Assembly (NCBI GenBank): GCA_964410395.1
Contig: CAYPGS010000009.1
Span: 6,038 to 70,037 of the forward strand
Length of the DNA stretch: 64,000 bases
Direction: 5' to 3'
Origin: an uncultured bacterium
Lineage (GTDB): Bacteria; Krumholzibacteriota; Krumholzibacteriia; JACNKJ01
This document shows, in pieces, positions 9,750 to 32,467 of the stretch. The number at the start of each line of letters is the position of its first letter. Positions within the stretch are counted from its first letter, which is position 1. Below the pieces are notes generated by a model that saw nothing but the letters and a program-made list of their open reading frames with translations, had not been told where the DNA came from and made no database searches. The position numbers and the translations under genes were made by a program.

Positions 9750-9888
9750 GATTCTCCTCGTTGGCTCGTCGCCGGAAAGCGTTCCCGGATACTACGCCAA
9801 GGTCCCCCCGGCATCAAGCCGTCGAGCGCTCCAAGATCCCAGGAATATTGCCGTTAAAAGGACGTGAAAAAACTCGCCGGGGTTGTGG

Positions 9889-13535: not shown

Positions 13536-13634
13536 CTCCAGCTACCAGCAGCCAGCTACCAGCCGGATCCTCGCATCTCATGTGCGAATGGGAGTATTCC
13601 GGCTGAAAGCTGGCAGCTGGGGGCTGGTAGCTCA
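13536..13634. repeat. CCAGCTN-heptamer inverted-repeat hairpin element, copy A (long form with nested central hairpins)
   Basis: Left arm CCAGCTA CCAGCAG CCAGCTA CCAGCCGG (13538-13566), right arm CCGGCTGAAAGCTGGCAGCTGGGGGCTGGTAGCTC (13599-13634); between PFOR stop and ACD start. Confidence 0.85.
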
Positions 13635-13647
13635 GAAAGGAGTGACC

Positions 13648-15756
13648 ATGTACGAGTCACTGCTTTCTCCCGGCTCCATCTGCGTCATCGGCGCTTCCCA
13701 GACGCCCGGCAAGGTGGGCTACGAGATCTTCGCCAATCTGGTCGACGGCGGCTTTCAGGGAAAACTATTCCCCGTGAATCCGAAAGCCGACTCCATCCTC
13801 GGCCATGCCTGTTTTCCCGACATCTCCTTCCTTCCAGAAAGCCCCGACCTCGCGGTGATCGCGGTGCCTACGCCCGCGGTGAAGCCCGCCGTGGAGGCCA
13901 GCCACCAGAAGGGCGCCGGCGCGATCATCGTGATCACCGCGGGATTCAAGGAGACCGGTCCCGAAGGCGCGAAGCTCGAAGAGGAGATATCTCGTCTCTG
14001 TCGCGGGAAGGACGTGCCCCTCATGGGGCCCAACTGCCTCGGACTCGTGAACACGCAGCACGCCATGAACGCGTCCTTCGCCAGCCACATGCCCGAGGAA
14101 GGCGAGATCTCCGTGCTCTCGCAATCGGGCGCGTTGTGCACGGCCATCCTGGACTGGGCCGCCGGACGTCACCTGGGCCTGGCCAAGCTGGTGAGCATGG
14201 GCAACAAGGCGGGTCTGGACGAGCGCCACTTCCTTTCCGCCTTCGCCGAGGACGATGACACCAAGGTCATCGTGGGCTACCTGGAAAGCATCAGCGAGGG
14301 CGATGAGTTCATCCGCCGGGCCGAGGCCGTGGCGACGAAGAAGCCCGTGGTACTGCTCAAGGTGGGCAGCACCGAGGCCGGCGGAAAGGCGGCGAGTTCA
14401 CACACGGGTTCGCTGGCCGGAGCCGATGTGGCCTACGGCGCGGCCTTCAAGCGGGCGGGCGTGATCCGGGCGGAGAACTTCGAGCATCTCTTCGACGTGG
14501 CCACCGCCCTGGCCATGCAGCCCCTGCCCCAGGGCGACCGCGTGGCCATCATCACCAACGCGGGCGGACCCGGCATCATGGCGGCCGACGCCGTGGAGAA
14601 CGCCGGCATGACCGTGTCGAAGCTCTCCGGCGAAAGCGCCGAGGCCCTGGCCGACAAGCTTCCCGCGGCCGCCAGCGTCGCCAATCCCATCGACGTGCTG
14701 GGCGACGCCGATCCCGAGCGCTACGCCATGGCCCTGGACGTGGCCCAGGACGACGACACGGTGGACGCCATCGTCGTCATCCTCACGCCCCAGGCGATGA
14801 CCCGCCCCGCGGAGACGGCCCGGGCCATCGCCGCGCGGGTGAGGAACGAGAAGCCGGTTCTGGCGGTCTTCATGGGTGGGCGGGACGTCATGCCCGGCCG
14901 CGAGGAGCTGGTGGAGGCCAAGCTGCCCGACTACACGTCCCCCGAGCGCGCGGTGGCCGCGTTGAAGGCCATGCGCAGCTACGCCGAGTGGAGGAAGCGT
15001 CCGCCGCGCATCGTGTCGCGATTCCCCGTGAACCGGCGCCGGGTGGAGCGCATCCTCTCTCGGCAGGTTCGATCGGGACGCGTACAGGTCGGCGAAGTTC
15101 AGGCCAAGGAAATTCTGCGCGCCTACGATTTCAACGTGCCCGCCGGACAGCTCGCGACCAACGGCGATGAGGCCGTGGACATAGCCGAGCGCCTTGGGTA
15201 TCCCCTGGCCATGAAAATCGTTTCGGCGGAAATCGTGCACAAGTCGGACTTCGGCGGCGTGAAGATCGGCCTGGGTTCGGCCGATGAAGTGCGCGACGCC
15301 TTCGACCTCATGACCCTTCGCATCGGGCGGCGCATGCCCGAGGCGAAGATCGACGGGATCTACATCGAACAGATGGCGGGGCGCGGCCGCGAGGTCATCC
15401 TGGGAATGACCAGGGATCCGCAGTTCGGCCCCATGCTCATGTTCGGACTCGGCGGCATCTTCGTAGAGGTCATGAAGGACGTCACCTTCCACCTGGCCCC
15501 CATCACTCGCGATGAGGCTCTGCAGATGCTCATGGGCACGCGCTCCTACGCGCTCCTCGAGGGCGCCCGCGGACAGGGCCGCGTGGATATCGGCGCCATC
15601 GCCAAGGGCATCCAGCGCATCAGTCAGCTGGTGACCGACTTCCCGCAGATCGCCGAACTGGACATCAATCCGCTCATCGTCGGACCCGTGGGCACCGAAC
15701 CCGCCGTGGCCGACGCGAGGATCACCCTTTCCAAGGAGGGGGATGGCGATGATTGA
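13648..15756 (+). CDS. acd: acetyl-CoA synthetase (ADP-forming), fused alpha/beta subunits (acetate--CoA ligase [ADP-forming])
   Basis: ATG 13648 (MYESLLSPGSICVIGASQTPGKVGYEIF..., CoA-binding) with AAAGGAG SD; succinyl-CoA-synthetase-like and ATP-grasp regions; ORF-track start 13582 reads through the repeat element and is rejected. Confidence 0.85.
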   Translation: MYESLLSPGSICVIGASQTPGKVGYEIFANLVDGGFQGKLFPVNPKADSILGHACFPDISFLPESPDLAVIAVPTPAVKPAVEASHQKGAGAIIVITAGFKETGPEGAKLEEEISRLCRGKDVPLMGPNCLGLVNTQHAMNASFASHMPEEGEISVLSQSGALCTAILDWAAGRHLGLAKLVSMGNKAGLDERHFLSAFAEDDDTKVIVGYLESISEGDEFIRRAEAVATKKPVVLLKVGSTEAGGKAASSHTGSLAGADVAYGAAFKRAGVIRAENFEHLFDVATALAMQPLPQGDRVAIITNAGGPGIMAADAVENAGMTVSKLSGESAEALADKLPAAASVANPIDVLGDADPERYAMALDVAQDDDTVDAIVVILTPQAMTRPAETARAIAARVRNEKPVLAVFMGGRDVMPGREELVEAKLPDYTSPERAVAALKAMRSYAEWRKRPPRIVSRFPVNRRRVERILSRQVRSGRVQVGEVQAKEILRAYDFNVPAGQLATNGDEAVDIAERLGYPLAMKIVSAEIVHKSDFGGVKIGLGSADEVRDAFDLMTLRIGRRMPEAKIDGIYIEQMAGRGREVILGMTRDPQFGPMLMFGLGGIFVEVMKDVTFHLAPITRDEALQMLMGTRSYALLEGARGQGRVDIGAIAKGIQRISQLVTDFPQIAELDINPLIVGPVGTEPAVADARITLSKEGDGDD

Positions 15757-17626: not shown

Positions 17627-17710
17627 CTTCAACTTGAACTCGAAATGAACTCCCCACCCCCATCCAACCGGTGGGGGTTCCTTCTTGTTCAAGTTCACGT
17701 TCAAGTTCAC
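17627..17710. promoter_or_regulatory. repeat-rich intergenic region: inverted GTTCAAGTT copy (17627-17639), hairpin CCCCCA-9nt-TGGGGG + T-rich tail (17657-17690, possible terminator of upstream operon), tandem GTTCAAGTTCAC x2 (17687-17710)
   Basis: All repeats read directly; lies upstream of first Cys-rich paralogue. Confidence 0.45.
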
Positions 17711-17777
17711 GTTTCTCATGATTCCGGTTCGCTTCTTGCAATTCCTCCAGCGGCACGCAATCACTGGAGGAGAATCA

Positions 17778-18356
17778 ATGCGCAAAGTACTGCTAACACT
17801 GGCACTTATGAGTATCGCCACCGTCGGCCTGGCCGATCCGGTGATCGGAATCTTTGCAGACGAGAACATGGTTTCTTGCGATACTGCCCTGATTCCTTAC
17901 GCCCCCACCATGCTCTACGTGATCGCCTACTGGACCACCGGTCCTCTGGATGACGGCATCACCGCCGCCGAGTTCAGGCTCGACGGGTTGCCCCAGAACG
18001 ACGGGTATCCCCTGGGTCAGGTCACGGTCAACCATACGACGGATCTGGTCATCGGTAACATCTGGCATGACTACTCCGCCGCCTGGTCGAATCCTCAGGG
18101 CGCGGGCGTGAGTCAGTTCACCATCTGCAGCATCGAGATTCTCATGTTCGACGCCGGCTGGGTCGGCCCGGACACCGAAGTCACCGTCTCCGCAGGATTT
18201 GACTGTGACTGCCTGGTTCTCGTGGACTCCTTCTTCGACGTGCACACCGCCGCCGGAGGGCTGTTCACCCTGAACTGTTCCGAGCCTCCCTGCGATTGCT
18301 TCCCGCCGGTCGCTACCGAGAGCACCAGCTGGAGCAATGTGAAGTCGCTTTTCTAG
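17778..18356 (+). CDS. secreted Cys-rich hypothetical protein, paralogue 1 (unknown family)
   Basis: ATG 17778 with GGAGG SD 7 nt upstream; signal peptide MRKVLLTLALMSIATVGLA; conserved blocks shared with paralogue 2: DGYPxGxVTVNHTTDLVIGxIWxDYSAAW, FTICSIE, CxCLxLVD, NCSxPPCDCFPP, TSWSxVKxLF. Confidence 0.6.
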   Translation: MRKVLLTLALMSIATVGLADPVIGIFADENMVSCDTALIPYAPTMLYVIAYWTTGPLDDGITAAEFRLDGLPQNDGYPLGQVTVNHTTDLVIGNIWHDYSAAWSNPQGAGVSQFTICSIEILMFDAGWVGPDTEVTVSAGFDCDCLVLVDSFFDVHTAAGGLFTLNCSEPPCDCFPPVATESTSWSNVKSLF

Positions 18357-18501
18357 AACGTTGCGTTTTCATTGGTTGTTTGAGGCCCCCGGCTCTTCGC
18401 CGGGGGTTTTCTAGTAATAATACTTGTCGCATTTCGTCGGCAACACTAGCCTGACACCAAACCCCTCACTGCCGCCCGGAAACTCAAACGGGAGGCAAGT
18501 G

Positions 18502-19077
18502 ATGCAAAAGACCAGTGCGATCATTGCGATTCTGTTGTTTGCGGTAAGCGCTCATGCAATGCCTGTCATCGGAGTCTTCGCCGATGAGGTGCCTTACATT
18601 TGCTACGCGGATGTGACTCCCTACGTACCTCTTACGCTCTACGTCGTCTCCTATTGGGAACCCGGAGAAATGGGCGCCGGAGTGACGGCCGCGGAGTTCA
18701 AAATCGCGAATTTCCCGACGAATGACGGCTACCCAAGCGGAACAGTGACCGTGAATCACACGACCGACTTGGTCATAGGCGATATCTGGACTGACTACTC
18801 AGCAGCATGGAACATCCCGCAAGATGAGGGAAACAAGTTCACGATCTGCAGTATCGAAGTTCTCCCATTCGATGCAGCCTGGATTCCAGGACAGCTGACC
18901 GTACTCGTCACCGAAGGTGACGATTGCTCGTGCCTGCTTTTGGTGGATGACATCTTCGAAATCGTCCCCGCTCGCGGAGGGCAGTTCACTTTCAACTGCT
19001 CGAATCCGCCCTGTGATTGTTTCCCGCCCACATCCACTCGCGATACCAGCTGGAGCAGCGTGAAGGCGCTGTTCTAG
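18502..19077 (+). CDS. secreted Cys-rich hypothetical protein, paralogue 2 (about 60% identical to paralogue 1 by eye), lower G+C
   Basis: ATG 18502 with GGGAGG SD; signal peptide MQKTSAIIAILLFAVSAHA; same six conserved Cys; ORF-track starts 17685/18424 are upstream extensions. Confidence 0.6.
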   Translation: MQKTSAIIAILLFAVSAHAMPVIGVFADEVPYICYADVTPYVPLTLYVVSYWEPGEMGAGVTAAEFKIANFPTNDGYPSGTVTVNHTTDLVIGDIWTDYSAAWNIPQDEGNKFTICSIEVLPFDAAWIPGQLTVLVTEGDDCSCLLLVDDIFEIVPARGGQFTFNCSNPPCDCFPPTSTRDTSWSSVKALF

Positions 19078-22738: not shown

Positions 22739-24829
22739 ATGAGTACCGACCTGAGCAAGGTCCGCAACATCGGCATCAGTGCGCATATCGACTCGGGGAA
22801 GACCACCCTGACCGAGCGGGTCCTTTTCTATACCGACCGCATCCACGCCATCCACGAGGTGCGCGGCAAGGACGGCGTCGGCGCCACCATGGACAGCATG
22901 GAGCTGGAGCGCGAGCGGGGCATCACCATCGCCTCGGCCGCCACCCACGTGGAGTGGGACGGCCACCACGTCAACATCATCGACACCCCCGGCCACGTGG
23001 ACTTCACCATCGAGGTGGAGCGCAGCCTGCGCGTGCTGGACGGCGCGGTGCTCATCCTCTGCGCCGTGGCCGGCGTGCAGAGCCAGTCCATCACCGTGGA
23101 CCGCCAGATGAAGCGTTACAAGGTCCCCCGCATCGCCTTCGTGAACAAATGCGATCGCTCGGGCGCCAACCCCTTCCGCGTGACCGACGGGCTCATCGAG
23201 AAGCTCGGTCACAACGCCGTGATGATGCAGATCCCCATCGGGCTCGAGGCTGATCACGAGGGCGTGGTCGACCTGATCAAGATGAAGGCCATCTACTTCG
23301 ACGGCGAGAGCGGCGAGACCATGCGCGAGGAGGACATCCCCGCGAACCTGCTGCCCGAGGCGGAACACCGCCGCGAGATGATGCTCGACGCCGTGTCCAT
23401 GTTCAGCGACGAGCTCATGGAGGCCATGCTCGAGGAGGCGGTCACCGAGGAGATGATCCACGAGGCCGTGCGCACGGGCACCCTGAGCCGCGAGCTGACC
23501 CCCGTCTTCATGGGATCGGCCTACAAGAACAAGGGCGTGCAGCCCCTGCTGAACGCCGTGCTCCGCTACCTGCCCGAGCCCCGCGAGATCGAGAACGAGG
23601 CCATCAGGCTCAACGGCGGCGACGAGGACGAGACCTTCGTGGTGAGCAACGATCCCGAGGATCCGGCCATCGCCCTGGCCTTCAAGCTGGAGGACGGGCA
23701 GTACGGGCAGCTCACCTACATCCGCATCTATCAGGGTTCGCTCAGCAAGGGCGACACGGTGAAGAACAACCGCACCGGCCAGAAGGTGAAGGTCGGCAGG
23801 CTCGTGCGCATGCACTCCAACAAAATGGAGGACATCGAGCGCGCCGAGGCCGGCGACATCGTCGCTCTCTTCGGCGTGGACTGCGCCTCGGGCGACACCT
23901 TCACCGCGCCGGACATCTCGGCCTCCATGGCCAGCATGCACGTACCCGATCCGGTGATCAGCCTTTCGGTGAAGCCCGTGGACAAGAAGGCCCAGGACAA
24001 CATGTCCAAGGCCCTCGGCCGCTTCACCCGCGAGGATCCCACCTTCCGCGTGGGCGCCGACGAGGAGACCGGTGACACGGTCATCCAGGGCATGGGCGAG
24101 CTTCACCTCGACGTCTACATCGAGCGCATGAAGCGCGAGTACAACGCCGAGGTCGAGGTCAGCCCGCCCCAGGTGAGCTACCGCGAGGCGCTCGGCAAGT
24201 CGGTGGCCTTCGACTACACCCACAAGAAGCAGACCGGCGGATCGGGACAGTACGCGAAGGTGCAGGGCGTTCTCGAGCCCCTCGCCGAGGGCGAGTTCGA
24301 GTTCGTGAACGAGGTGAAGGGCGGCAACATCCCCACCGAGTACATCGGCGCCGTTGAGAAGGGCTTCAAGGGTGCGCTGGACAAGGGCCCGGTGATCGGC
24401 GCCCACGTGGTCGGCGTGAAGGTCATCCTGCAGGACGGGAACAGCCACGCCGTGGACAGCTCCGACACCGCCTTCATGACCTGCGCCCGCGACGCCTTCC
24501 GCCAGTTCTATCCCAAGGGTGGACCCAAGGTACTCGAGCCGCTTATGCTCGTGTCGGTGGAGACCCCGCGGGAATTCCAGGGCGAGGCCATGGGCACGCT
24601 GATGCAGCGCCGGGCCATCGTGCTGGGTACCACGGAGGACGCGGGCTTCGTGCGCATCGACGCCGAGGTGCCGCTGTCGGAGATGTTCGGATACGCCACC
24701 GTGCTGCGTTCGGTGACCCAGGGCAAGGCGGGCTTCACCATGGAGTTCAAGCGTTACGCGCCGGCTCCTGCGGACGTGGCCGACGAGCTGAAGAAGCAGT
24801 ACCAGGAAAAACTCAAGGAAGGCAAATAG
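22739..24829 (+). CDS. elongation factor G paralogue (EF-G2-like translational GTPase)
   Basis: 696 aa; G1 [10 protein letters not shown]3 DTPGHVDF, G4 NKCD; distinct from the str-operon fusA at 48661-50733. Confidence 0.85.
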
Positions 24830-24845
24830 CCGGGGGTAAGGGCTC

Positions 24846-25556
24846 ATGGTTTTCAGCAAGGAACTGAACAAGCGCAGTCCCCTGCGCATCTTCGAGCGCT
24901 CCATCCATGGAGGCCTCGGCAAGGGCAACATAGGCCTGGTGACCAGCCGCAAGGGCGTGGGCAAGACGGCCATGCTCATCGGCGTGTCCCTGGACGACCT
25001 GCTCCAGGACCGCAAGGTCCTGCACGTGAGCGTGGGCGGTTCGGTGGACAATCTCGCCCGCTTCTACGACGAGATCTTCCAGGAACTGGTTACCTCCAGC
25101 AAGGTCGAGGACGTGCCCGAGTGCCGCCTCACCATGGAGCGCAACCGCCACCTTCTCGCCTACCGCGACGGCGAGTTCAGCGTGGATCGCATCCGCGAGA
25201 GCATGAACTTCCTCTCCGAGCACGCGGCCTTCGATCCCTACGCGCTCATCCTGGACGGCTGGCCCGACTTCGAGACCGTCACCGGCGAGGAGCTGGCTGC
25301 GCTCAAGCAGCTGGCCGAGGACATGCAGGTGGAGATCTGGATCACGGCCCTGCGCCATCGCGAGGGTCAGGAGCGCGACGAGCGCGACGTGCCCATGGAA
25401 GTGGCGCGCCACGACGAGCACCTGGCGGTGATCGTGCGCCTGGAGCCCAAGGCCGATCACGTGAAGCTGCGCATCGTCAAGGACCACGAGAATAAGGACA
25501 TGGCCGACCTGCATCTGGAGCTCGATCCCAAGACTCTTCTGCTCAAGTGGGGATGA
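24846..25556 (+). CDS. small RecA-superfamily (KaiC/DnaB-like) P-loop ATPase, co-operonic with EF-G2
   Basis: 236 aa; Walker A-like TSRKGVGKTAML, Walker B-like YALILDGW; 16-nt gap after EF-G2; shared terminator downstream. Confidence 0.45.
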   Translation: MVFSKELNKRSPLRIFERSIHGGLGKGNIGLVTSRKGVGKTAMLIGVSLDDLLQDRKVLHVSVGGSVDNLARFYDEIFQELVTSSKVEDVPECRLTMERNRHLLAYRDGEFSVDRIRESMNFLSEHAAFDPYALILDGWPDFETVTGEELAALKQLAEDMQVEIWITALRHREGQERDERDVPMEVARHDEHLAVIVRLEPKADHVKLRIVKDHENKDMADLHLELDPKTLLLKWG

Positions 25557-25584
25557 TTCCGGCCAGAACCCCCGCTTGAAAAAA

Positions 25585-25613
25585 CCCGGGTCCTGAGGGC
25601 CCGGGTTTTTTTT
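25585..25613 (+). terminator. rho-independent terminator (CCCGGG...CCCGGG + T8)
   Basis: aaaaaaCCCGGGtcctgagggCCCGGGtttttttt; marks left edge of lower-GC island. Confidence 0.8.
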
Positions 25614-25645
25614 GCTTGGATCGTCGCACCCTTTCCCGTGTAGGA

Positions 25646-25663
25646 TAAGAGATGTATCTCTTA
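25646..25663. promoter_or_regulatory. inverted repeat TAAGAGAT-GT-ATCTCTTA upstream of VWA gene (candidate regulator binding site)
   Basis: 8-bp arms exact reverse complements, 2-bp spacer; AT-rich region 25620-25758. Confidence 0.35.
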
Positions 25664-25758
25664 CAATCTTCTTACATGGATCTGACCATCATTTTCTTAG
25701 TAAGACGTAGACTCATGACGATGAATCCTGTGGATTTTCTAGAAGGAGGGCCAACGTC

Positions 25759-27084
25759 ATGAGTGGAAGAATCAAACGAATGAACCTATCCATCCTCGTT
25801 TTCGCATTACTGTTCTGGCAGAGTCCGGAAACGGCAAAGGCCAGGATGATCGACTTGAGTGTGGCGGTCGACAAGCCCATCGTTCTTCGGAATGAGAGTC
25901 AGGTCGCATACTTAAGGGTCGGGCTGACCGGATTCCCGATGCACGACCTACAGAATCGCAGCCCCTTGAATGTGGCAATCGTGCTCGACAAGTCGGGTTC
26001 GATGCAGGGAGAGAAGATCGAACGGGCAAAAGAAGCTGCGATCATGGCGATCCATCGTCTTGACTCAAGGGACATCGTGTCGATCATCGCCTACGACGAA
26101 ACCGTCGAAGTCGTTGTTCCGGCCACGAAAGCTTCAGACATCGAAGCCATCAGCGCTGCGATTCGCGCAATCCAGGCGCGCGGCAACACAGCCCTTTTTG
26201 CCGGAGTCAGTAAGGGCGCGGCTGAAGTGCGGAAGTTCCTCAGCAAGAATCATGTGAACCGTATTGTGCTCCTTTCAGATGGAGTAGCGAATGTGGGTTT
26301 GAGCTCGCCTTCTGACCTCGGCGCTCTGGGGTCAATTCTTGCGGACGAGGGCATGTCTGTTACGACCATCGGCCTCGGACTGGGATACAACGAAGACCTG
26401 CTAAGCGAACTCGCGACAAGAAGTGACGGGTATCACTATTTCGCTGAGGGATTGGAGGATCTCTCCCAGATGTTCGACCAGGAGTTCGGCAAGGCACTGT
26501 CCTTAGTCGCACAGGGAATTGAAATCCGCATTCGATGCGCCCCCGGTGTCATCCCGCGCCGCATCCTAGGCAAGTCAGCCACGATCGATGGCTCTGATGT
26601 GAGGATTTCCCTCAACAACCTATTCAGCGAGAGCGAGCGGCGGATCGTTTTGGAGGTAGAGTTGTCTCCCGAAATGCTTCGGGATCCGGATGTCGAGATT
26701 GCCGCCATTGACGTAGACTATGACAACCTTCTTACTCGCTCGCGAGATCATCTAGATCGTAAGCTGAGCATCGAAACAACTCTATCGAGAGCTGATGTCG
26801 ATGCGAACATCAATTCGCGTGTAATGGTCGACGTAGTCAAGATCCTTGCGGTGGAGCAGAACATGCAGGCTTCGCTACTTAGAGACCAGGGACGCATTGC
26901 CGAAGCGCTTGAGCTTCTTCTTAGGAACGCAGACTTCCTCGCCGAGAACGCCCTTCGTTTCAATTCCCAGGATCTCCAGGCATACTCACTGCAGCAGGAG
27001 ATCGACGCCCAGAACTTGGACGACACAAACTGGGATCGCCAACGCAAGGAAATGGAGTTCAACGCTGTGAAAGCCCTTTACTAG
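25759..27084 (+). CDS. secreted von Willebrand factor type A (VWA) domain protein
   Basis: 441 aa; SD AGGAGGG; signal peptide ...LVFALLFWQSPETAKA; MIDAS DxSxS in VAIVLDKSGSM; lower G+C than flanks. Confidence 0.75.
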   Translation: MSGRIKRMNLSILVFALLFWQSPETAKARMIDLSVAVDKPIVLRNESQVAYLRVGLTGFPMHDLQNRSPLNVAIVLDKSGSMQGEKIERAKEAAIMAIHRLDSRDIVSIIAYDETVEVVVPATKASDIEAISAAIRAIQARGNTALFAGVSKGAAEVRKFLSKNHVNRIVLLSDGVANVGLSSPSDLGALGSILADEGMSVTTIGLGLGYNEDLLSELATRSDGYHYFAEGLEDLSQMFDQEFGKALSLVAQGIEIRIRCAPGVIPRRILGKSATIDGSDVRISLNNLFSESERRIVLEVELSPEMLRDPDVEIAAIDVDYDNLLTRSRDHLDRKLSIETTLSRADVDANINSRVMVDVVKILAVEQNMQASLLRDQGRIAEALELLLRNADFLAENALRFNSQDLQAYSLQQEIDAQNLDDTNWDRQRKEMEFNAVKALY

Positions 27085-27116
27085 GCTGAACGACACGATT
27101 CTCGATCGGAATCTGA

Positions 27117-28685
27117 ATGAAACCGAAGCTCTCTATTCTGCTTGCTCTACTGATTCTCCTTCCCGCGATTCTCGTCACGATCCTGGGAATCAGGCTCGCC
27201 TATCATGAGCAAGAGCAGACGAGGTTGCGATTCGAGCATCTACACCTCGAACACCTGGGCGATGTTGACAATGGCATCGTCCAGGTTACTTCTCGATGGG
27301 AAACTGAGCTTCTCCAGGCATTATCTGTTTCCGATGTCAACGCTATGACCCTGAAGAACCTGTCCCGCAATCATGCTCGTATCAGACAGGCATTTCTGCT
27401 TGATCCTCAGGGCAAGCTCATCTACCCCCTTCCCAGCGAACATGCAAGTTCCTCGGAGCTGGACTTTCTAGATGGGGCAAGCGAACTGATCCTTAGGAAA
27501 GAGTTGGTTGCCCTTCCTGGAACAGAAGCATCCGCCGTCCCTCAGGGGTGGTACTCCTGGTATTGGGGCAGGGATATCCGGACACTTTTTTGGCTACATA
27601 CAAGTGAAGGACAAATCCTCGGAGCCGAGATCGAGACTGTATTGCTTGTCTCTGACATCATCAATGCATTGCCCGTCACGCAAACAAGTTCGGAGTCAGA
27701 TTTATCGACCGGGCTCTTAGATCGTACCCGCCTGCTGAACTCTAGAGGTGAGATCATTTATCAATGGGGGCGACTGGAGGTACCCGAGGATACTTCGCCG
27801 GCCTCACGAATCCAGCTCTCCCGACCACTTTCGGCTTGGAGCCTGGAGCTCTATCGTAGCGACGGTGCCGGATCGATCGCTGGCCGAGGCGTCCTGATGA
27901 CCATCATTGCGAGTTCCTTGGCCCTTGCGCTGGTCTTTGTCGGCTTCGGCATCTTCCTTTACCGGGAAAACTCCCGCGAGCTACGTGAGTCCGCCCGGCG
28001 AGTCAGCTTCGTCAATCAGGTCTCCCATGAGCTGAAGACCCCACTCACGAATATCCGCCTCTACGCCGAACTCCTAGACCGCCGGATCGACGAGGACGAT
28101 TCCCAGGCCCGTGGATATGCTGGTATTATCGTTTCGGAAAGTCGCAGGCTTAGCCGACTCATTGGCAATGTCCTCAGTCTTGGCCGACAGCGGGAAAAGA
28201 GGCTTACTCTCCATCGAAGGGCGGGGTGCATTGACAGTGTGATCGAAGGGGTACTCGAACAATTCCGACCTGCCCTGAGGACCTCAGGAATCGCGGTTCT
28301 TACTGATCTTCAGGCTATCGGAAATGTCTCCCTGGATGCCGATTTACTCGAGCAGGTCCTGGGAAATCTGATCAGCAATGTAGAAAAGTACGCCGCTTCA
28401 GGTGAGCAGCTGGCGATTGCAAGTCGTCAGCGTGATGGAGTCACGACCCTTACGGTTGAGGATCGCGGCCCAGGCATTCCAGACAGTGAGAAAGCTCGAG
28501 TGTTCGAGCCCTTCTACCGAATCAACACGAGCCTTGTCGAGGGAGTGTCCGGGACTGGTATCGGACTTTCCATCGCTCGTGATTTGGCCCGTCTGCACGG
28601 AGGAGATCTGAAGCTGATGCCAAGCGAGATGGGGGCGAAGTTCGAGCTGACTCTGTTCACTCCTGATATGAATCTGGGAGAATGA
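27117..28685 (+). CDS. sensor histidine kinase (two TM segments flanking a periplasmic domain; HisKA + HATPase_c)
   Basis: 522 aa; H-box SHELKTPLTNIRLYAELL; G-boxes GTGIGLSIARDLARLHGGDL. Confidence 0.85.
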   Translation: MKPKLSILLALLILLPAILVTILGIRLAYHEQEQTRLRFEHLHLEHLGDVDNGIVQVTSRWETELLQALSVSDVNAMTLKNLSRNHARIRQAFLLDPQGKLIYPLPSEHASSSELDFLDGASELILRKELVALPGTEASAVPQGWYSWYWGRDIRTLFWLHTSEGQILGAEIETVLLVSDIINALPVTQTSSESDLSTGLLDRTRLLNSRGEIIYQWGRLEVPEDTSPASRIQLSRPLSAWSLELYRSDGAGSIAGRGVLMTIIASSLALALVFVGFGIFLYRENSRELRESARRVSFVNQVSHELKTPLTNIRLYAELLDRRIDEDDSQARGYAGIIVSESRRLSRLIGNVLSLGRQREKRLTLHRRAGCIDSVIEGVLEQFRPALRTSGIAVLTDLQAIGNVSLDADLLEQVLGNLISNVEKYAASGEQLAIASRQRDGVTTLTVEDRGPGIPDSEKARVFEPFYRINTSLVEGVSGTGIGLSIARDLARLHGGDLKLMPSEMGAKFELTLFTPDMNLGE

Positions 28686-29374
28686 CCATGAGAATACTCA
28701 TCGCCGAGGACGACATGAACATCCGCAACGCCCTGGCGAAAATCTTTCGGGAGGAAGGCTACGAAACTCTGCTCGCGTCAACCGGGTCTGAAGCATTGCT
28801 GCTTTTCGAGACGGAAAAGCCGGATCTGGTCTGCCTGGACATCATGATGCCGAGTGTGAATGGCTATGATGTTTGCCGCGAAATTCGAAGGAAGGGTTCA
28901 AATGTTCCGGTCATCTTCATCAGCGCAAAGTCCGAGGAAATCGACAAGGTGCTTGGCCTGGAGTTGGGTGCCGATGATTTCATCGTGAAGCCATTCGGAC
29001 TTCGGGAAGTGATCGCCCGCGTTCGGGCCGTAAGTCGACGCTATCGCCTGGGCCCCTCTCTCGGCAAGGACCCTGCGCCTTTCCACATGGGCTCCCTTGA
29101 GGTCGCTCCCGCCGAGCTGAGAGCCTACCGAGATGGCCAGAGTATCGAACTCAGCCAGCGTGACATGGATATCCTCAAGATCCTTCATGATCAGCAAGGA
29201 CGGGTCGTCGATCGAGTAACATTGTTCCGGATAGCCTGGGGCCTGGACCACATTCCCACTAGCCGTACTTTGGACCAGCACATTTCCCAGTTAAGGAAGC
29301 GAATCGAGTTGGATCCGAAGAACCCGACTCTAATCAAGACGGTGCATGGAGTAGGCTATCGCTTTGAAGGCTGA
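28682..29374 (+). CDS. OmpR/PhoB-family response regulator (receiver + winged-helix)
   Basis: 230 aa; overlaps HK stop by 4 nt; receiver ILIAEDD...LDIMMP...; C-terminal ...TVHGVGYRFEG. Confidence 0.85.
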   Translation: MTMRILIAEDDMNIRNALAKIFREEGYETLLASTGSEALLLFETEKPDLVCLDIMMPSVNGYDVCREIRRKGSNVPVIFISAKSEEIDKVLGLELGADDFIVKPFGLREVIARVRAVSRRYRLGPSLGKDPAPFHMGSLEVAPAELRAYRDGQSIELSQRDMDILKILHDQQGRVVDRVTLFRIAWGLDHIPTSRTLDQHISQLRKRIELDPKNPTLIKTVHGVGYRFEG

Positions 29375-29381
29375 GAGCAGT

Positions 29382-30509
29382 TCAAAGGTGCTGGCTGCTC
29401 ATGACGCGAATCGTCATACCTGATTTGCGCAAGTCGTAGGGTTTCCTCACGTTGGGGCAGACTAGCAGGTTCTCACCCTCGGGATATGCCTCCCGGAAAA
29501 CGGAGAGCGCTCTCGCATCGAATGCATCGGGATTGACCTTCACCTCAATCGCGTCGACGGCCTTTCCCTTGGCCTTGACCACGAAGTCGATCTCTCGCTG
29601 ACTCTTGTCCCTCCAATAGTGGATGGCTTGACCAGGACGCGATACGCGCAGCTCGTCCAGCACCAGATGCTCCCAGAGCTGCCCCCTGTCCCCATCCCGC
29701 AGAGACTCCCATCCCCGGACATGAGCGACCAAACCCGTATCGAAGGCATAGACCTTGGGTTGACGGATTATCTCGCGATGCCCGCCGCCATGGAATGGCG
29801 GCACGCGGGTCAGCGCGTGCGCGATTTCCATCGCCTCCAGATGAGCCATCACAGTTTGACGACTCAAGCCGCTTTCCTTGGCGAGATCGCTGATCTCGAG
29901 CTGCCCCCCACTGCGGTGACAGACCAGGCGCAGGAGCTTTAGAAAACCACTTCGGTTACGCACACTGAACAGCTCCTGGATGTCTCTCGCAAAGAAACTG
30001 TCCATCCATTCTTCGAAGAAGCTTGGGTCGGGAGCGTCCGCGAGCAGCAATTCAGGAAAACCGCCGTGGAGGAGCCGCTTGTCGAAATCAGGCGGTCCGA
30101 ACTCGCCCTGGCACTCTCTCCAAAGCACCGGGGTCAACTGAACCGTATGCTTGCGGCCGCTGAGGCTGTCGCGGAATTTACTCGTCGCCTGCAAGGTCGA
30201 CGAGCCCGTGGCCAGTACCTTCAAGTGCGGGAACTCATCGGCAGCGATTTTCAGAACCGAGCTCGGATCCGCGATCCGATGAACCTCATCGAGGATCACG
30301 GGCCTGCCACCCGGCTGGCTCGAGAGGAAGAACTCGGGATCCTCCAATCGCCTCTGAGTTGAGGGGAGATCGCAGTTGAAGTAGATCGCCTCGGAAATCT
30401 GCTTGCACAGTGTGGTCTTTCCCACCCGGCGAGCGCCGGAGAGCCAGACGATGCTTCGCTTCTCCCAAAGGGCGTGGATTCGTTCGACCCATTGACTGCG
30501 TCTTTTCAT
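29382..30509 (-). CDS. AAA+ superfamily ATPase (COG1373-like, DUF4143-type)
   Basis: 375 aa; Walker A GARRVGKTT; Walker B VILDEVH; convergent with RR gene (7-bp gap). Confidence 0.65.
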   Translation of the reverse strand: MKRRSQWVERIHALWEKRSIVWLSGARRVGKTTLCKQISEAIYFNCDLPSTQRRLEDPEFFLSSQPGGRPVILDEVHRIADPSSVLKIAADEFPHLKVLATGSSTLQATSKFRDSLSGRKHTVQLTPVLWRECQGEFGPPDFDKRLLHGGFPELLLADAPDPSFFEEWMDSFFARDIQELFSVRNRSGFLKLLRLVCHRSGGQLEISDLAKESGLSRQTVMAHLEAMEIAHALTRVPPFHGGGHREIIRQPKVYAFDTGLVAHVRGWESLRDGDRGQLWEHLVLDELRVSRPGQAIHYWRDKSQREIDFVVKAKGKAVDAIEVKVNPDAFDARALSVFREAYPEGENLLVCPNVRKPYDLRKSGMTIRVMSSQHL

Positions 30510-30573: not shown

Positions 30574-30600
30574 GGGCCAAAAGCGCCTGGCTTTTGGCCC
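30574..30600 (-). terminator. terminator hairpin for ferritin gene (GGGCCAAAAG-7nt-CTTTTGGCCC, U-rich tail on minus strand)
   Basis: 10-bp perfect stem; minus-strand RNA continues TTTGCTTTG. Confidence 0.5.
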
Positions 30601-30627: not shown

Positions 30628-31149
30628 TTACTCTTCCGCCATGACGGCGTTGATGTCGATGGCCGCCCGCGCGCCCAGCTCCTTGTCGATCATGTAGAGA
30701 CCGCTGCCGGAGTCGCCCACCATCTTGAGCTTCTGGATGATGCTCTTGGCCGTGGCTTCCTCCTCCACCTGCTCGCTCACGAACCACTGCAGGAAGACCT
30801 TCGCCGCGCGGTCGTTCTCGGCGTCGGCCAGGTCGGCAAGGGAATTGATGAGTGCGGTGACTTCCTGCTCGTGCTTGAGAGTCTCCTCGAAGACCTCGAG
30901 CACGCTGCTCCACTCGCTAGGCGGGGCGGGCAGTTCGTCGAGCACCACGCGGCCGTCGCGGTCGTTGATGAAGTTGAAGAACTTCATGGTGTGGGCCATC
31001 TCTTCCTGGGACTGCACGTACATCCAGTGGGCCAGGCCGTCCACATCCGCGGAGTAGAGATAGGCCGACATGGCCAGGTAGAGATAGGACGAGTACATCT
31101 CCGCGTTGAGCTGCTTGTTCAGTGCTTCTTCGAGCTTGGGACTCAGCAT
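30628..31149 (-). CDS. ftn: ferritin (non-haem, ferritin-like diiron)
   Basis: 173 aa; EEALNKQLNAEMYSSYLYLAMSAY...QEEMAHTMKF...EQVEEE typical ferritin ferroxidase-centre residues. Confidence 0.8.
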   Translation of the reverse strand: MLSPKLEEALNKQLNAEMYSSYLYLAMSAYLYSADVDGLAHWMYVQSQEEMAHTMKFFNFINDRDGRVVLDELPAPPSEWSSVLEVFEETLKHEQEVTALINSLADLADAENDRAAKVFLQWFVSEQVEEEATAKSIIQKLKMVGDSGSGLYMIDKELGARAAIDINAVMAEE

Positions 31150-31207
31150 CGGATCCTCCTCACGGTCGGTTTTCGCCCACGAATCTAGTCAGTCGAGGGA
31201 CGAATGT

Positions 31208-32467
31208 CTAGTCGCCCACCGTGTATCCCAGGGCCTCGATGGCGCCTCGGATCTGAGCCAGGTCGTAGCCATCGCCGCGGAAACGCGCCTCGCCTCCCTG
31301 CAGGTCGATCTCGACTTCCTTCACGCCCTGGCTCTCGCTCACTGCGCGCTTCACGCTACCCGCGCAGTGTTCGCAGGTCATTCCGTCGACCTTGAGGGTA
31401 ACGGCGTTTTCCATGATCGTCTCCTTCATGTCGGATTTCGTGATCCTCGGCCAGAGCAGGGCCAGCATCATCATGAAGACCAGGGCCCAGGCGCCGCCGG
31501 TCTTGAACCAGCCGGGCACGGTCTCGTGGTGATGGCCCATGGCGGGCATCCACTCGGCCTGCACCCAGTTCTGAGTGAAGAGGAAATCCAGAAGCAGTCC
31601 CGAGAGAATTGCGAACACCGCCACCACCAGCAGATAGACGATGGCCGAGCGCTTGCCGAGGATCTTCCAGACCGTGGCTAGGGTGGCCGTGTTGGTGGCC
31701 GGCCCGGTGATCAGGAAGACCAGTGCCGCGCCGGGCGAGATGCCCATGTGGATCATGGCCAGGGCCAGGGGCACCGAGCCCGTGGCGCAGACGTAGATGG
31801 GAATGCCCACCAGCATCATGACGATGAGCCCCAGGAAGCCCGAGCCCAGGGAATCGGCGAAGTAGTTGGCCGGGATGGCGGCGCTGATCACGGCGGCCAC
31901 CACCATGCCCACGATGAGGGCCTTGGCGATGTCCCGGGGCAGGGTGATGAAGCCGTAGACCAGAGCGTTCAGCCACCGATTGCCTTCCGTGGGCATCTCG
32001 CCGCAGCCGTCGTCGCAATCGGCCTCGGCCTTTACTGTCTCTCCGTTGGGATCGGTCTCCAGGGCCGAGACGGTGGTCCCTCCCAGCACGCCGGTGACAA
32101 GGGCGGCCAGGGGTCGGAAGATGGCGAAGATGGGGCCCAGGAGTCCCCAGGTGACCATGATGCTGTCCACGCCGGTCTGGGGCGTCGAGAGCAGGAAGCT
32201 CGTGGTCGAACCCCGGCTGGCGCCGTGCTGGCGCAGGGAGGCCGCCACGGGAATCACCCCGCAGGAGCACAGCGGCAGGGGAATGCCGAAGAGCGTGGCC
32301 TTCCAGATGGGCCCCTGGCCGCGTCCGCCCAGGTGCCGCTCGATGATCTGCGGGGAAATGAAGGCCGAAAGGGCTCCAGCCACGGCGAAGCCAAGGATCA
32401 GATAGATGGCCATCTCTTCCATGAGGTACCAGAACTCGCGGGGCACTTCGAGGAGGAAGTCGAGCAA
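31208..32467 (-). CDS. predicted permease (COG0701/DUF318-like, metal efflux-type) fused to C-terminal heavy-metal-associated (HMA) domain
   Basis: 419 aa multi-TM; C-terminal LKVDGMTCEHCAGSVKRAV...GYTVGD is a canonical MxCxxC HMA fold. Confidence 0.65.
   Translation of the reverse strand: MLDFLLEVPREFWYLMEEMAIYLILGFAVAGALSAFISPQIIERHLGGRGQGPIWKATLFGIPLPLCSCGVIPVAASLRQHGASRGSTTSFLLSTPQTGVDSIMVTWGLLGPIFAIFRPLAALVTGVLGGTTVSALETDPNGETVKAEADCDDGCGEMPTEGNRWLNALVYGFITLPRDIAKALIVGMVVAAVISAAIPANYFADSLGSGFLGLIVMMLVGIPIYVCATGSVPLALAMIHMGISPGAALVFLITGPATNTATLATVWKILGKRSAIVYLLVVAVFAILSGLLLDFLFTQNWVQAEWMPAMGHHHETVPGWFKTGGAWALVFMMMLALLWPRITKSDMKETIMENAVTLKVDGMTCEHCAGSVKRAVSESQGVKEVEIDLQGGEARFRGDGYDLAQIRGAIEALGYTVGD

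Follow-up and report, generated by a model that had tools for sequence, protein, structure and literature searches.

A lower-GC islet in a Krumholzibacteriota genome encodes a widespread module of secreted VWA protein, histidine kinase and OmpR/PhoB-type regulator with a conserved candidate operator

We analyzed a 64,000-nucleotide stretch of DNA from an uncultured bacterium (Krumholzibacteriota; contig CAYPGS010000009.1 of assembly GCA_964410395.1), hereafter the window, and focused on the segment at positions 25615-29380, which carries three co-directional genes: one for a secreted protein with a VWA (von Willebrand factor, type A) domain and its MIDAS (an adhesion site dependent on metal ions), one for a sensor histidine kinase (HK), and one for an OmpR/PhoB-family response regulator (RR). 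Sequence comparison across bacteria indicates that these genes form a self-contained VWA-HK-RR module, and both composition and locus comparison support reading the segment as a small islet that arrived by horizontal transfer and has no mobility genes, inserted at the terminator between the convergent genes for p236 (a 236-aa protein) and ferritin. The explanation that best accounts for our results as a whole, and that we hold to be probable, is that of such an islet carrying an autoregulated three-gene operon in which the VWA protein is a feedback partner of the kinase.

The G+C content of 25615-29380 is 0.540 (54.0%), compared with 0.634 (63.4%) in the remainder of the window, corresponding to z = -6.7 against non-overlapping 3.8-kb windows (mean 0.636, sd 0.014, minimum 0.606), and the lowest-G+C window of the whole stretch begins at 25601. 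These values bear out the lower-GC island described in an initial annotation of this DNA, which had put the contrast at half versus two-thirds and so overstated its size slightly. The deficit lies almost wholly in third codon positions, with ordinary GC1 and GC2: third-position G+C (GC3) is 0.64 in the VWA gene, 0.58 in the HK gene and 0.65 in the RR gene, compared with 0.93 in the elongation factor G (EF-G) gene, 0.90 in p236, 0.89 in ferritin, 0.88 in ArsP, 0.80 in L17 and 0.91 in rpoA among the surrounding genes, with values of 0.75-0.94 in all other credible genes of the window, weakly expressed types (an MFS transporter, ArsP, a FlgD_ig protein and p236) among them. Two other sources of this deficit were considered and ruled out. 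Weak expression fails because every other non-ribosomal gene of the window has a GC3 of at least 0.75, and an intrinsic property of the trio fails because its G+C matches that of the host in 54 loci of other lineages (difference -0.034 to +0.063), so that low G+C belongs to this lineage's copy and not to the genes themselves.

The left edge of the islet is sharp and coincides with a bidirectional terminator hairpin 3' of p236 (25579-25613; 16-nt arms at 25579-25594 and 25596-25611, 94% complementary, with an A-run and a T-run on its sides), which is both the left islet boundary and resident sequence of the insertion site. The right edge is blurred, with G+C of 0.58-0.60 as far as ~30650, because the next gene, encoding an AAA_14/DUF4143 ATPase (GC3 0.715), is also atypical. 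In agreement with the initial annotation, which had seen no integrase or transposase at the edges, no such domains were detected among the Pfam-scanned proteins of 15.7-32.5 kb. No relatives of the cassette were found on viral contigs, and plasmids gave only partial matches at the level of the VWA domain (30-41% identity, each covering <80% of the protein).

The first gene of the cassette (25759-27084, forward strand) has a GGAGG ribosome-binding site ~10 nt 5' of its ATG and encodes a 441-aa protein with a Pfam VWA match at residues 71-240 (2.5e-18) and a DKSGS motif. Its N-terminus consists of a hydrophobic helix followed by an AKA/R cleavage motif, with an AxA-type signal also present in homologues, and the five MIDAS residues (D77, S79, S81, T144, D174) do not vary among 118 homologues; the proposal of a signal-peptide VWA/MIDAS protein in the initial annotation is thereby confirmed. 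The AlphaFold2 model (pLDDT 91.8, pTM 0.85) comprises a signal helix, strands at 32-57, the VWA domain at 70-247, a beta-sandwich at 249-341 and four helices at 353-440. A Foldseek search of the model against the Protein Data Bank (PDB) returned first ArnB in the ArnAB complex (8s05; TM 0.70-0.83), followed by 4fx5 and vWA2 (5a8j), all near full length (TM 0.65-0.83 and E 1e-23 to 1e-26 for the three entries, at 16-19% sequence identity), and at lower rank Sec23/24 and inter-alpha-inhibitor heavy chain. The vWA2/ArnB architecture is tripartite, with a VWA domain, an 8-stranded beta-sandwich to which N-terminal strands contribute the missing part, and a four-helix bundle at the C-terminus, and its MIDAS has been proposed to bind a glutamate of the partner (PMC6509490). 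On the strength of the model, the VWA protein can confidently be predicted to have an ArnB-like three-part fold.

This likeness to ArnB/vWA2 of Sulfolobus acidocaldarius and to Caci_2163 of Catenulispora (4fx5) extends to an intact MIDAS and, in the case of ArnB, to a role as a signaling adaptor. However, ArnB is cytoplasmic, has the FHA protein ArnA as its partner, and is subject to Ser/Thr phosphorylation of its helix bundle, whereas the protein described here carries a signal peptide and is predicted to have a histidine kinase as its partner; no FHA, Ser/Thr-kinase or PP2C genes were called in the window locus. Many members of the family bear the JGI label K07114/YfbK, "Ca-activated chloride channel homolog", and share with YfbK and with BatA/BatB a VWA domain with MIDAS. 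The label reflects only VWA-domain homology to CLCA (TIGR00868 at 34.8 bits vs. a cut-off of 900), and nothing suggests a channel. We know of no link between YfbK or BatA/BatB and a two-component system.

The second gene (27117-28685, forward strand) encodes a 522-aa sensor histidine kinase with HisKA at residues 296-359 (3.6e-16) and HATPase_c at 407-513 (7e-22). Its layout runs from a first transmembrane segment (~5-27) through a periplasmic region of ~230 residues (~28-258) and a second transmembrane segment (~259-281) to the dimerization and histidine phosphotransfer (DHp) and catalytic parts, with no HAMP domain. Across 34 homologues, the phospho-accepting H304 and the N (N417/N421), G1 (G451/G453), F (F463/F466) and G2 (G479/G481/G483) box residues are invariant and D449 is nearly so. 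The sensor domain has family-specific residues of its own that are invariant or near-invariant, namely E114, F117, G144, W145, W148, W159, Y215, W217 and G218. A word-indexed search with the sensor domain retrieved 3 proteins only, and the exhaustive search used in its place defined a family of 656 clusters at 50% identity (E <= 1e-3; 435 homologous clusters at E <= 1e-10), nearly all of whose proteins are 500-750 aa long. This family has no relative in Pfam or among PDB sequences: 33 sensor domains compared with Pfam (E <= 1) gave stray matches only (TarH in 3, dCache_1 in 1), and the sensor profile found nothing below E 0.27 among PDB sequences. The best NCBIfam model for the kinase, PnpS, scored 164 bits vs. 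the 400 required, and every match among those listed is confined to the core and leaves the sensor region uncovered. A PDC/Cache-like sensor fold, hinted at by a long helix followed by alpha/beta units, was considered and was not used.

The third gene (28682-29374, forward strand) encodes an OmpR/PhoB-family regulator with two possible ATG starts, 28682 (230 aa) and 28688 (228 aa). It matches Response_reg (4.6e-31) and, for its winged-helix output domain, Trans_reg_C (7.8e-22), and the expected receiver residues E9, D10, D11, D53, S81 and K103 are present. The kinase stop codon overlaps the first of these starts (ATGA) or ends 2 nt before the alternative ATG. A periplasmic-sensing kinase coupled to an OmpR-family regulator had been proposed in the initial annotation, and the Pfam domains, the two transmembrane segments and the ATGA overlap all agree with it; the pair has the features of a classical two-component system of HisKA and OmpR/PhoB type. 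The nearest NCBIfam models to the regulator are RpaB (198 bits vs. 330), YycF/WalR, MtrA and PhoB, all below their cut-offs. More generally, none of the three proteins attains a curated NCBIfam cut-off, and those of the named equivalogs (PhoR/PhoB, WalK/WalR, RpaB, MtrAB, CreBC, CpxAR, BaeSR and others) were not reached.

To place the trio among bacteria, we scanned one genome per species, which yielded at least 588 stretches that encode relatives, and base the following module counts on the best 80 loci. These belong to Planctomycetota, Verrucomicrobiota, Myxococcota, Gammaproteobacteria (Neptuniibacter, Amphritea, Marinobacterium, Zooshikella, Motiliproteus and others), Burkholderiales, Nitrospirota, Nitrospinota, Acidobacteriota, Spirochaetota, Sumerlaeota and Hydrogenedentes. 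Of the 80 loci, 63 have the kinase directly 3' of the VWA gene and co-directional with it, and in 59 both kinase and regulator follow, across more than 10 phyla. Kinase similarity among the loci extends beyond the core over the periplasmic sensor region (tblastn), and the regulators of related loci are 52-64% identical to that of the window. In a reverse check, even the weakest listed sensor homologue (P0398) lies within a VWA-HK-RR trio. For the three genes, pairwise distances correlate with one another (r 0.48-0.71), and no further gene family recurs within 6 kb of the trio in 60 loci. Our literature search on a VWA protein combined with a two-component module found no name or paper for it, and the parallels that it returned were all loose ones (PilY1/FimS-AlgR, CpxP, and Riemerella PhoPR with MoxR-VWA).

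A chance pairing of the VWA gene with functionally unrelated two-component genes would draw on the fact that both kinds of gene are very common, and on a link that rests on sequence comparison. It is effectively refuted by the same order and strand in 59 of the 80 loci across more than 10 phyla together with a homologous sensor domain, by the lack of other conserved neighbors, by the correlated divergences, and by a common operator before the VWA gene, which we describe below. The initial annotation had suggested that VWA protein and two-component system are functionally linked, and the same gene order, sensor homology and operator support this.

The 17 loci in which the kinase does not directly follow fall into 7 cut by a contig end, 5 with the regulator upstream on the opposite strand, and 5 with the VWA gene alone. 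In the opposite-strand class, the regulator is directly adjacent in 4 of the 5 loci and a kinase was also detected in 4. A divergent-regulator variant was observed in four Planctomycetota loci (L009, L014, L017 and L081; L-numbers denote loci from other genomes used in the comparison) and less clearly in L013, with a different OmpR-type regulator 5' of the VWA gene that is 35-37% identical to that of the window; in most of these the kinase lies beyond the regulator, no similarity to the window sensor domain was detected, and TTTTACA repeats lie between regulator and VWA gene in 4 of the 5 loci.

The cassette is preceded by an AT-rich leader (25615-25758, forward strand; G+C 0.48 in 25550-25849), in which an Rfam scan of the window found no riboswitch or RNA family. 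Within it lies a candidate operator at 25659-25687 (forward strand), composed of three half-sites at 11-bp phase, TCTTACA (25659-25665), TCTTACA (25670-25676) and TCTGACC (25681-25687). The array reads TCTTACA-ATCT-TCTTACA-TGGA-TCTGACC, and its consensus across loci is TyTTACA-N4-TyTTACA(-N4-TCTGACC). This is the sole place in the 64 kb where TYTTACA-N4-TYTTACA occurs, with two overlapping matches where 0.08 are expected by chance, and there is no second operator in the window. Where a kinase lies downstream, 59 of 64 VWA upstream regions (92%) agree with the motif at no fewer than 12 of its 14 specified bases, compared with 0.36% of 5866 control windows drawn from the same loci. Every match lies on the coding strand, the median distance to the start codon is 119 bp, and most loci have 3-4 half-sites at 11-bp phase (TTTTACA, TTTTACA, yTTACg and TCTGACCA), the last of which resembles a -35 element. 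In the window, a possible promoter may be formed by TGACCA (25683-25688), a 17-nt spacer and TAGACT (25706-25711), all on the forward strand; a sigma-70 consensus scan called no promoter in the leader.

The initial annotation had pointed instead to the inverted repeat TAAGAGAT-GT-ATCTCTTA at 25646-25663 as a possible site for the regulator. The repeat is present as described, and in its right arm it shares bases with the first conserved half-site, but it is specific to this lineage and does not hold as a conserved regulator site: it is not kept in L008, which reads CCATTATAGTTTTCTTACAC there, and in L006 other sequence has taken its place.

OmpR/PhoB regulators classically have operators built of direct repeats in tandem, spaced at 11 bp, and such phasing is typical of pho boxes. 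The array at 25659-25687 looks like an OmpR/PhoB-type operator of the cassette's own RR, predicted from its sequence and position, which would imply autoregulation; on the same conserved array, the accessory VWA gene is predicted to be a direct target of its cognate regulator. It shares a direct repeat of a TTACA-type hexamer with pho-box-like 11-bp phase with the operators of RpaB (HLR1), WalR (YycF) and PhoP/PhoB. RpaB binds HLR1 repeats of the form (G/T)TTACA(T/A)(T/A) (PMC6525291), but HLR1 has a 10-bp period vs. 11 bp here, the array here has 3-4 half-sites ending in TCTGACCA, and kinase and regulon differ. The array is also kept (at least 12 of 14 bases) in 11 of the 17 loci that lack an adjacent kinase and regulator. 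These include VWA genes without adjacent kinase or regulator at L015, L044, L053 and L072 (12-13 of 14 bases), which implies control in trans by the product of a non-adjacent regulator gene.

Together, these features suggest the following mechanism. The VWA protein would be exported to the periplasm, where a periplasmic signal would act on the sensor domain of the kinase, alone or jointly with the VWA protein. The stimulated kinase would phosphorylate the OmpR/PhoB-type regulator, which would bind the TCTTACA/TCTTACA/TCTGACC array at 25659-25687 and activate its own operon; this self-activation is suggested by the position of the array 5' of that operon, and would make the VWA protein the main conserved output. 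As the VWA protein accumulates, it would bind a carboxylate ligand through its MIDAS and most likely feed back on the kinase, the candidate ligand being an invariant sensor glutamate such as E114, or else an envelope or metal-dependent ligand. The co-sensor role of the VWA protein that the initial annotation had raised is what we infer from this arrangement, and the same holds for binding by the regulator, operon activation, a VWA protein-kinase contact and the kind of signal involved; composition, empty site, synteny, operator conservation, the modeled fold and the intact catalytic motifs are what the data show.

The closest parallels come from two-component systems in which an accessory protein acts in the periplasm. 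ZraP is a periplasmic accessory protein of ZraS/ZraR. In Escherichia coli, CpxP interacts with the kinase CpxA (PMC4160245). Both the CpxP-CpxA/CpxR and the ZraP-ZraS/ZraR systems resemble the trio in having a secreted protein encoded beside the system and apparently controlled by its regulator, with periplasmic feedback possible. They differ in that CpxP and ZraP are small, all-helical and divergently transcribed, whereas the accessory protein here is a 441-aa three-part VWA/MIDAS protein encoded by the first gene of the same operon, and in that the sensor domain of the trio is unrelated and has no Pfam match; its interaction with the VWA protein is a prediction. Another parallel is found in Pseudomonas aeruginosa, where PilY1 and minor pilins modulate FimS-AlgR. 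PilY1 is a large pilus-tip protein of the type IV pilus machinery, but the VWA proteins are not orthologous and the trio is without pilus genes. We class the trio as a new variant among such systems with an accessory protein.

To understand how the cassette came to its present position, we compared the gap between p236 and ferritin in L089, L008, the window and L006. The RpoA of the window is 94-95% identical to proteins of metagenomic contigs and 77-81% identical to those of Candidatus Krumholzibacteriota and Latescibacteria. The islet adjoins a large ribosomal-protein/rpoA cluster, with a gene order of EF-G paralogue, p236, terminator, VWA, HK and RR, followed on the opposite strand by AAA_14/DUF4143, ferritin, an ArsP-HMA permease, L17 and rpoA. 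In L089 (RpoA ~90% identical to that of the window), the order is rpoA-L17-ArsP-ferritin followed by convergent p236-EF-G, and the site is empty: ferritin and p236 lie 125 bp apart with a single terminator hairpin between them. In L008 (RpoA 95% identical), VWA-HK-RR lies between p236 and ferritin without the ATPase; in the window the gap holds cassette and ATPase; and in L006 (VWA protein 90% identical) it holds both, with the region 5' of the VWA gene replaced. The initial annotation had asked whether its KaiC-like gene (p236) and the AAA-ATPase adjoin each other without the insert; an uninterrupted site does exist, in L089, but the original neighbors there are p236 and ferritin rather than the ATPase.

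The L008 cassette is bracketed by two identical 30-bp terminator copies (AAAAACCCAGGTCCTTCGGGACCTGGGTTT, at ~9818-9847 and 13653-13682), and the empty site of L089 has one hairpin copy (13588-13615) whose loop differs from that of L008. The paired copies in L008 may be a target duplication, an att-like scar, or a substrate for precise deletion. The p236-side hairpin is single-copy in the window and is not dispersed in the L008 or L089 loci either. More distant relatives (L090 and L091, RpoA 81%) have other genes after L17 and no cassette there, a difference in context that cannot show which state of the gap came first.

The ATPase gene (29382-30509, reverse strand; Pfam AAA_14 and DUF4143) converges with the RR gene, with 7 bp between their stop codons. 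Its presence in the window and L006 and absence from L008 and L089 mark it as a second, later insert into the same gap, and it sits where L008 has the right-hand terminator copy, which it replaced. When compared with PADLOC defense models, only the ATPase matches (PDC-S01, 3.4e-62), while the VWA protein has no match and HK and RR have weak generic-domain matches. The presence of this defense-candidate gene suggests that the p236-ferritin gap behaves as an insertion hotspot. In atypical composition, empty site, variable gap content and a defense-candidate gene, the islet resembles the small islets without mobility genes found at hotspots. It differs from them in being old and present in several lineages, and in a composition that has not drifted to that of the host; there is no tRNA, integrase or insertion sequence.

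These comparisons, together with composition, a drop in nucleotide identity at the islet edge and the scatter of the module over more than 10 phyla, support the horizontal acquisition of a complete signaling cassette put forward in the initial annotation, which had set against it the presence of the same cassette at the same locus across the lineage. The latter is partly the case, since no fewer than three lineages at species level (those of the window, L006 and L008) have it there, and the gain of the islet is an old, shared insertion older than their split. Between the window and L008, the synonymous difference (pS) of flanking genes is 0.35-0.49, and a cassette common to lineages this far apart was not a recent strain-level acquisition. 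Cassette pS is 0.77-0.86 (saturated), and nucleotide identity falls from 79-94% to 49-72% at ~25700. The cassette is low in G+C in L008 as well (0.486 vs. 0.597 in flanks), with GC3 of 0.57, 0.49 and 0.40 vs. 0.71-0.80 in flanks. Values of dN/dS are 0.10-0.17 for the three genes (0.11 for VWA vs. L006), which shows that purifying selection keeps all three functional.

Since acquisition, the cassette alleles appear to have followed a course in part separate from that of their flanks. Compared with L006, the cassette-to-flank dS ratio is only ~1.3 (flanks ArsP and ferritin), and a patch at 28210-29209 on the forward strand stands out, with 64-79% identity inside vs. 81-93% on both sides. It covers the C-terminal half of HK (DHp and catalytic part) and most of RR; dS is 1.53 for RR, compared with 0.48 for the VWA gene and 0.48-0.56 for the rest of the cassette, ~3-fold lower. 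By its sequence, the patch looks like a recombination tract that may have swapped the kinase-regulator specificity pair together. In the L006 lineage, the sequence upstream of the VWA gene (L006 1-149, L007 1-51) is the 3' end of an unrelated gene, whose product ends in EEWETGKIYISMESEEA, and the operator is lost but for one TTTTACA. Contigs of this lineage end 50-150 bp 5' of the VWA gene (two retrieved, with similar places reported for others), which suggests a repeat or mobile element there.

Could these differences have arisen from one old acquisition followed by purely vertical descent, with a faster or less constrained local clock and no allelic replacement? The window, L006 and L008 cassettes group together in each of the three gene trees among the sampled loci, they share an insertion site and a conserved leader core, and genes with weak codon bias gain synonymous changes faster than genes with GC3 ~0.9. 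However, a uniform clock does not sit easily with a dS ratio of only ~1.3 against L006 when cassette sites in L008 are saturated beside unsaturated flanks, with a step at the boundary, nor with a 1-kb patch of ~3 times the dS of its surroundings. Synonymous positions with more than two turnovers behind them would also be expected to have shifted towards host GC3, yet they lie 0.25-0.35 below it in both lineages, and the VWA protein of L094, which lies in a different gene context with host-like GC3, is as close to that of the window (64% identity) as is that of L008 (66%). We therefore regard purely vertical descent as rather unlikely, and later allele exchange or replacement through the homologous flanks, from lower-GC relatives, as likely.

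Several results weigh against the overall explanation of an acquired islet with an autoregulated operon and a VWA feedback partner. As regards acquisition, the window shows no tRNA and no flanking direct repeats at the islet; the att-like signature of direct terminator copies is found in L008 only; gain and loss are equally parsimonious with L089 as the single outgroup, and recombination between hairpin copies could delete the cassette precisely; and an old insertion should have drifted towards host GC3, which is seen in neither lineage, so that lasting low GC3 calls for an extra assumption, either allele replacement from lower-GC donors or selection. As regards the feedback role, the kinase model obtained from a 4-sequence alignment (pLDDT 51.7) is too poor to give the sensor fold, the mirror-tree partial correlation between VWA protein and sensor domain is only 0.12 and so gives no extra signal of co-evolution, the sensor domain has a far higher rate of evolution than its VWA partner (mean distances of 1.74 and 0.78), and the partners can occur apart, in five VWA-only loci and one orphan kinase (P0348). 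The last is a 753-aa kinase of the same sensor family with a long sensor insertion, located at 5001-7262 of L093 with no VWA gene or regulator nearby.

The points on gain and loss would fit a native cassette that L089 lost through terminator-copy recombination, with low G+C due to local selection (low expression, AT-rich regulation), and indeed the two L008 copies would permit a precise excision that leaves one, as in L089, and low G+C is common to lineages that split long ago. Yet all other confidently called genes of the window, weakly expressed types included, have a GC3 of 0.75-0.94, and the 54 loci of other lineages carry the same trio at host G+C, indicating that nothing intrinsic demands a low value. 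L090 and L091 also have no cassette beside L17, though their gene context differs, and the gap took up a defense-candidate gene as well, as a hotspot would. On this evidence a native origin seems improbable, and we retain that of an acquired islet.

The points on the VWA protein bear in turn on whether it is an output only, for example a binding protein of the periplasm or cell surface that is under regulation, an adhesin, or a metal or ligand scavenger, with the kinase sensing alone. The sole conserved operator target is the VWA gene itself and VWA-only loci retain the operator, both of which fit such a role, as does the lack of an extra co-evolution signal with the sensor; the far stronger conservation of the VWA protein suggests a ligand common to many phyla rather than a kinase surface. 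On the other side, adjacency and order are near-obligate across phyla, and ordinary regulon members seldom stay beside their regulators over such distances. ZraP provides a precedent in which the most induced adjacent periplasmic gene also encodes a modulator of the kinase. CpxP is another such precedent (PMC4160245). Output and sensing roles are moreover compatible, and we consider a role as output only a possibility to be taken seriously, though one that falls short of the feedback partner in plausibility.

Several further features of the locus deserve mention. The EF-G paralogue and p236 (22739-25556, forward strand; p236 starting 16 nt after the EF-G paralogue) form a conserved gene pair without assigned function, also found in L008 and L089; p236, labeled KaiC-like in the initial annotation, has only a weak AAA_25 match (E 0.0095) and no PDB sequence relative. 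On the other side of the islet, ferritin and an ArsP_1 permease fused to an HMA domain (30628-32467, reverse strand) lie directly downstream of L17/rpoA, a pair kept in the window, L006, L008 and L089 and not in the relatives with 81% RpoA identity. Ferritin has its own terminator hairpin (30574-30600, reverse strand) between its stop codon and the AAA_14 gene, consisting of an 11-pair stem followed by a T-run. Further upstream, tandem paralogous genes (17685-18356 and 18424-19077, both forward strand) encode small secreted proteins with no Pfam match that share the motifs PVIGxFADE, TAAEF, VTVNHTTDLVIG, FTICSIE, CDCFPP and TSWSxVKxLF; the second lies within another lower-GC stretch (18001-19000, G+C 0.56), and in L008 the corresponding position is occupied by one 192-aa protein that matches no Pfam family.

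A bolder extension, which we consider doubtful, would have the VWA protein gate the kinase through MIDAS binding to an invariant sensor acid (e.g., E114), as co-receptor and autoregulated output at once, and would make the Krumholzibacteriota locus a hotspot at which low-GC alleles are repeatedly swapped through the flanks. If true, this would amount to an undescribed three-component envelope sensor of many phyla, in which integrin-style ligand recognition feeds a two-component pathway. For the locus itself, the islet keeps a foreign composition and extreme divergence across species-level time, a pattern not expected from simple compositional drift towards the host. For the family, the trio links an ArnB/Sec23-24-like VWA architecture, known from cytoplasmic Ser/Thr-phosphorylation signaling, to periplasmic histidine-kinase signaling, and two-component systems that use a periplasmic accessory are central to bacterial sensing of envelope and surroundings, yet few accessory types are known. 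The module is compact, occurs in at least 10 phyla, was matched in several hundred of the scanned species genomes and is directly testable, with cultured carriers in Neptuniibacter, Marinobacterium, Zooshikella and Amphritea.

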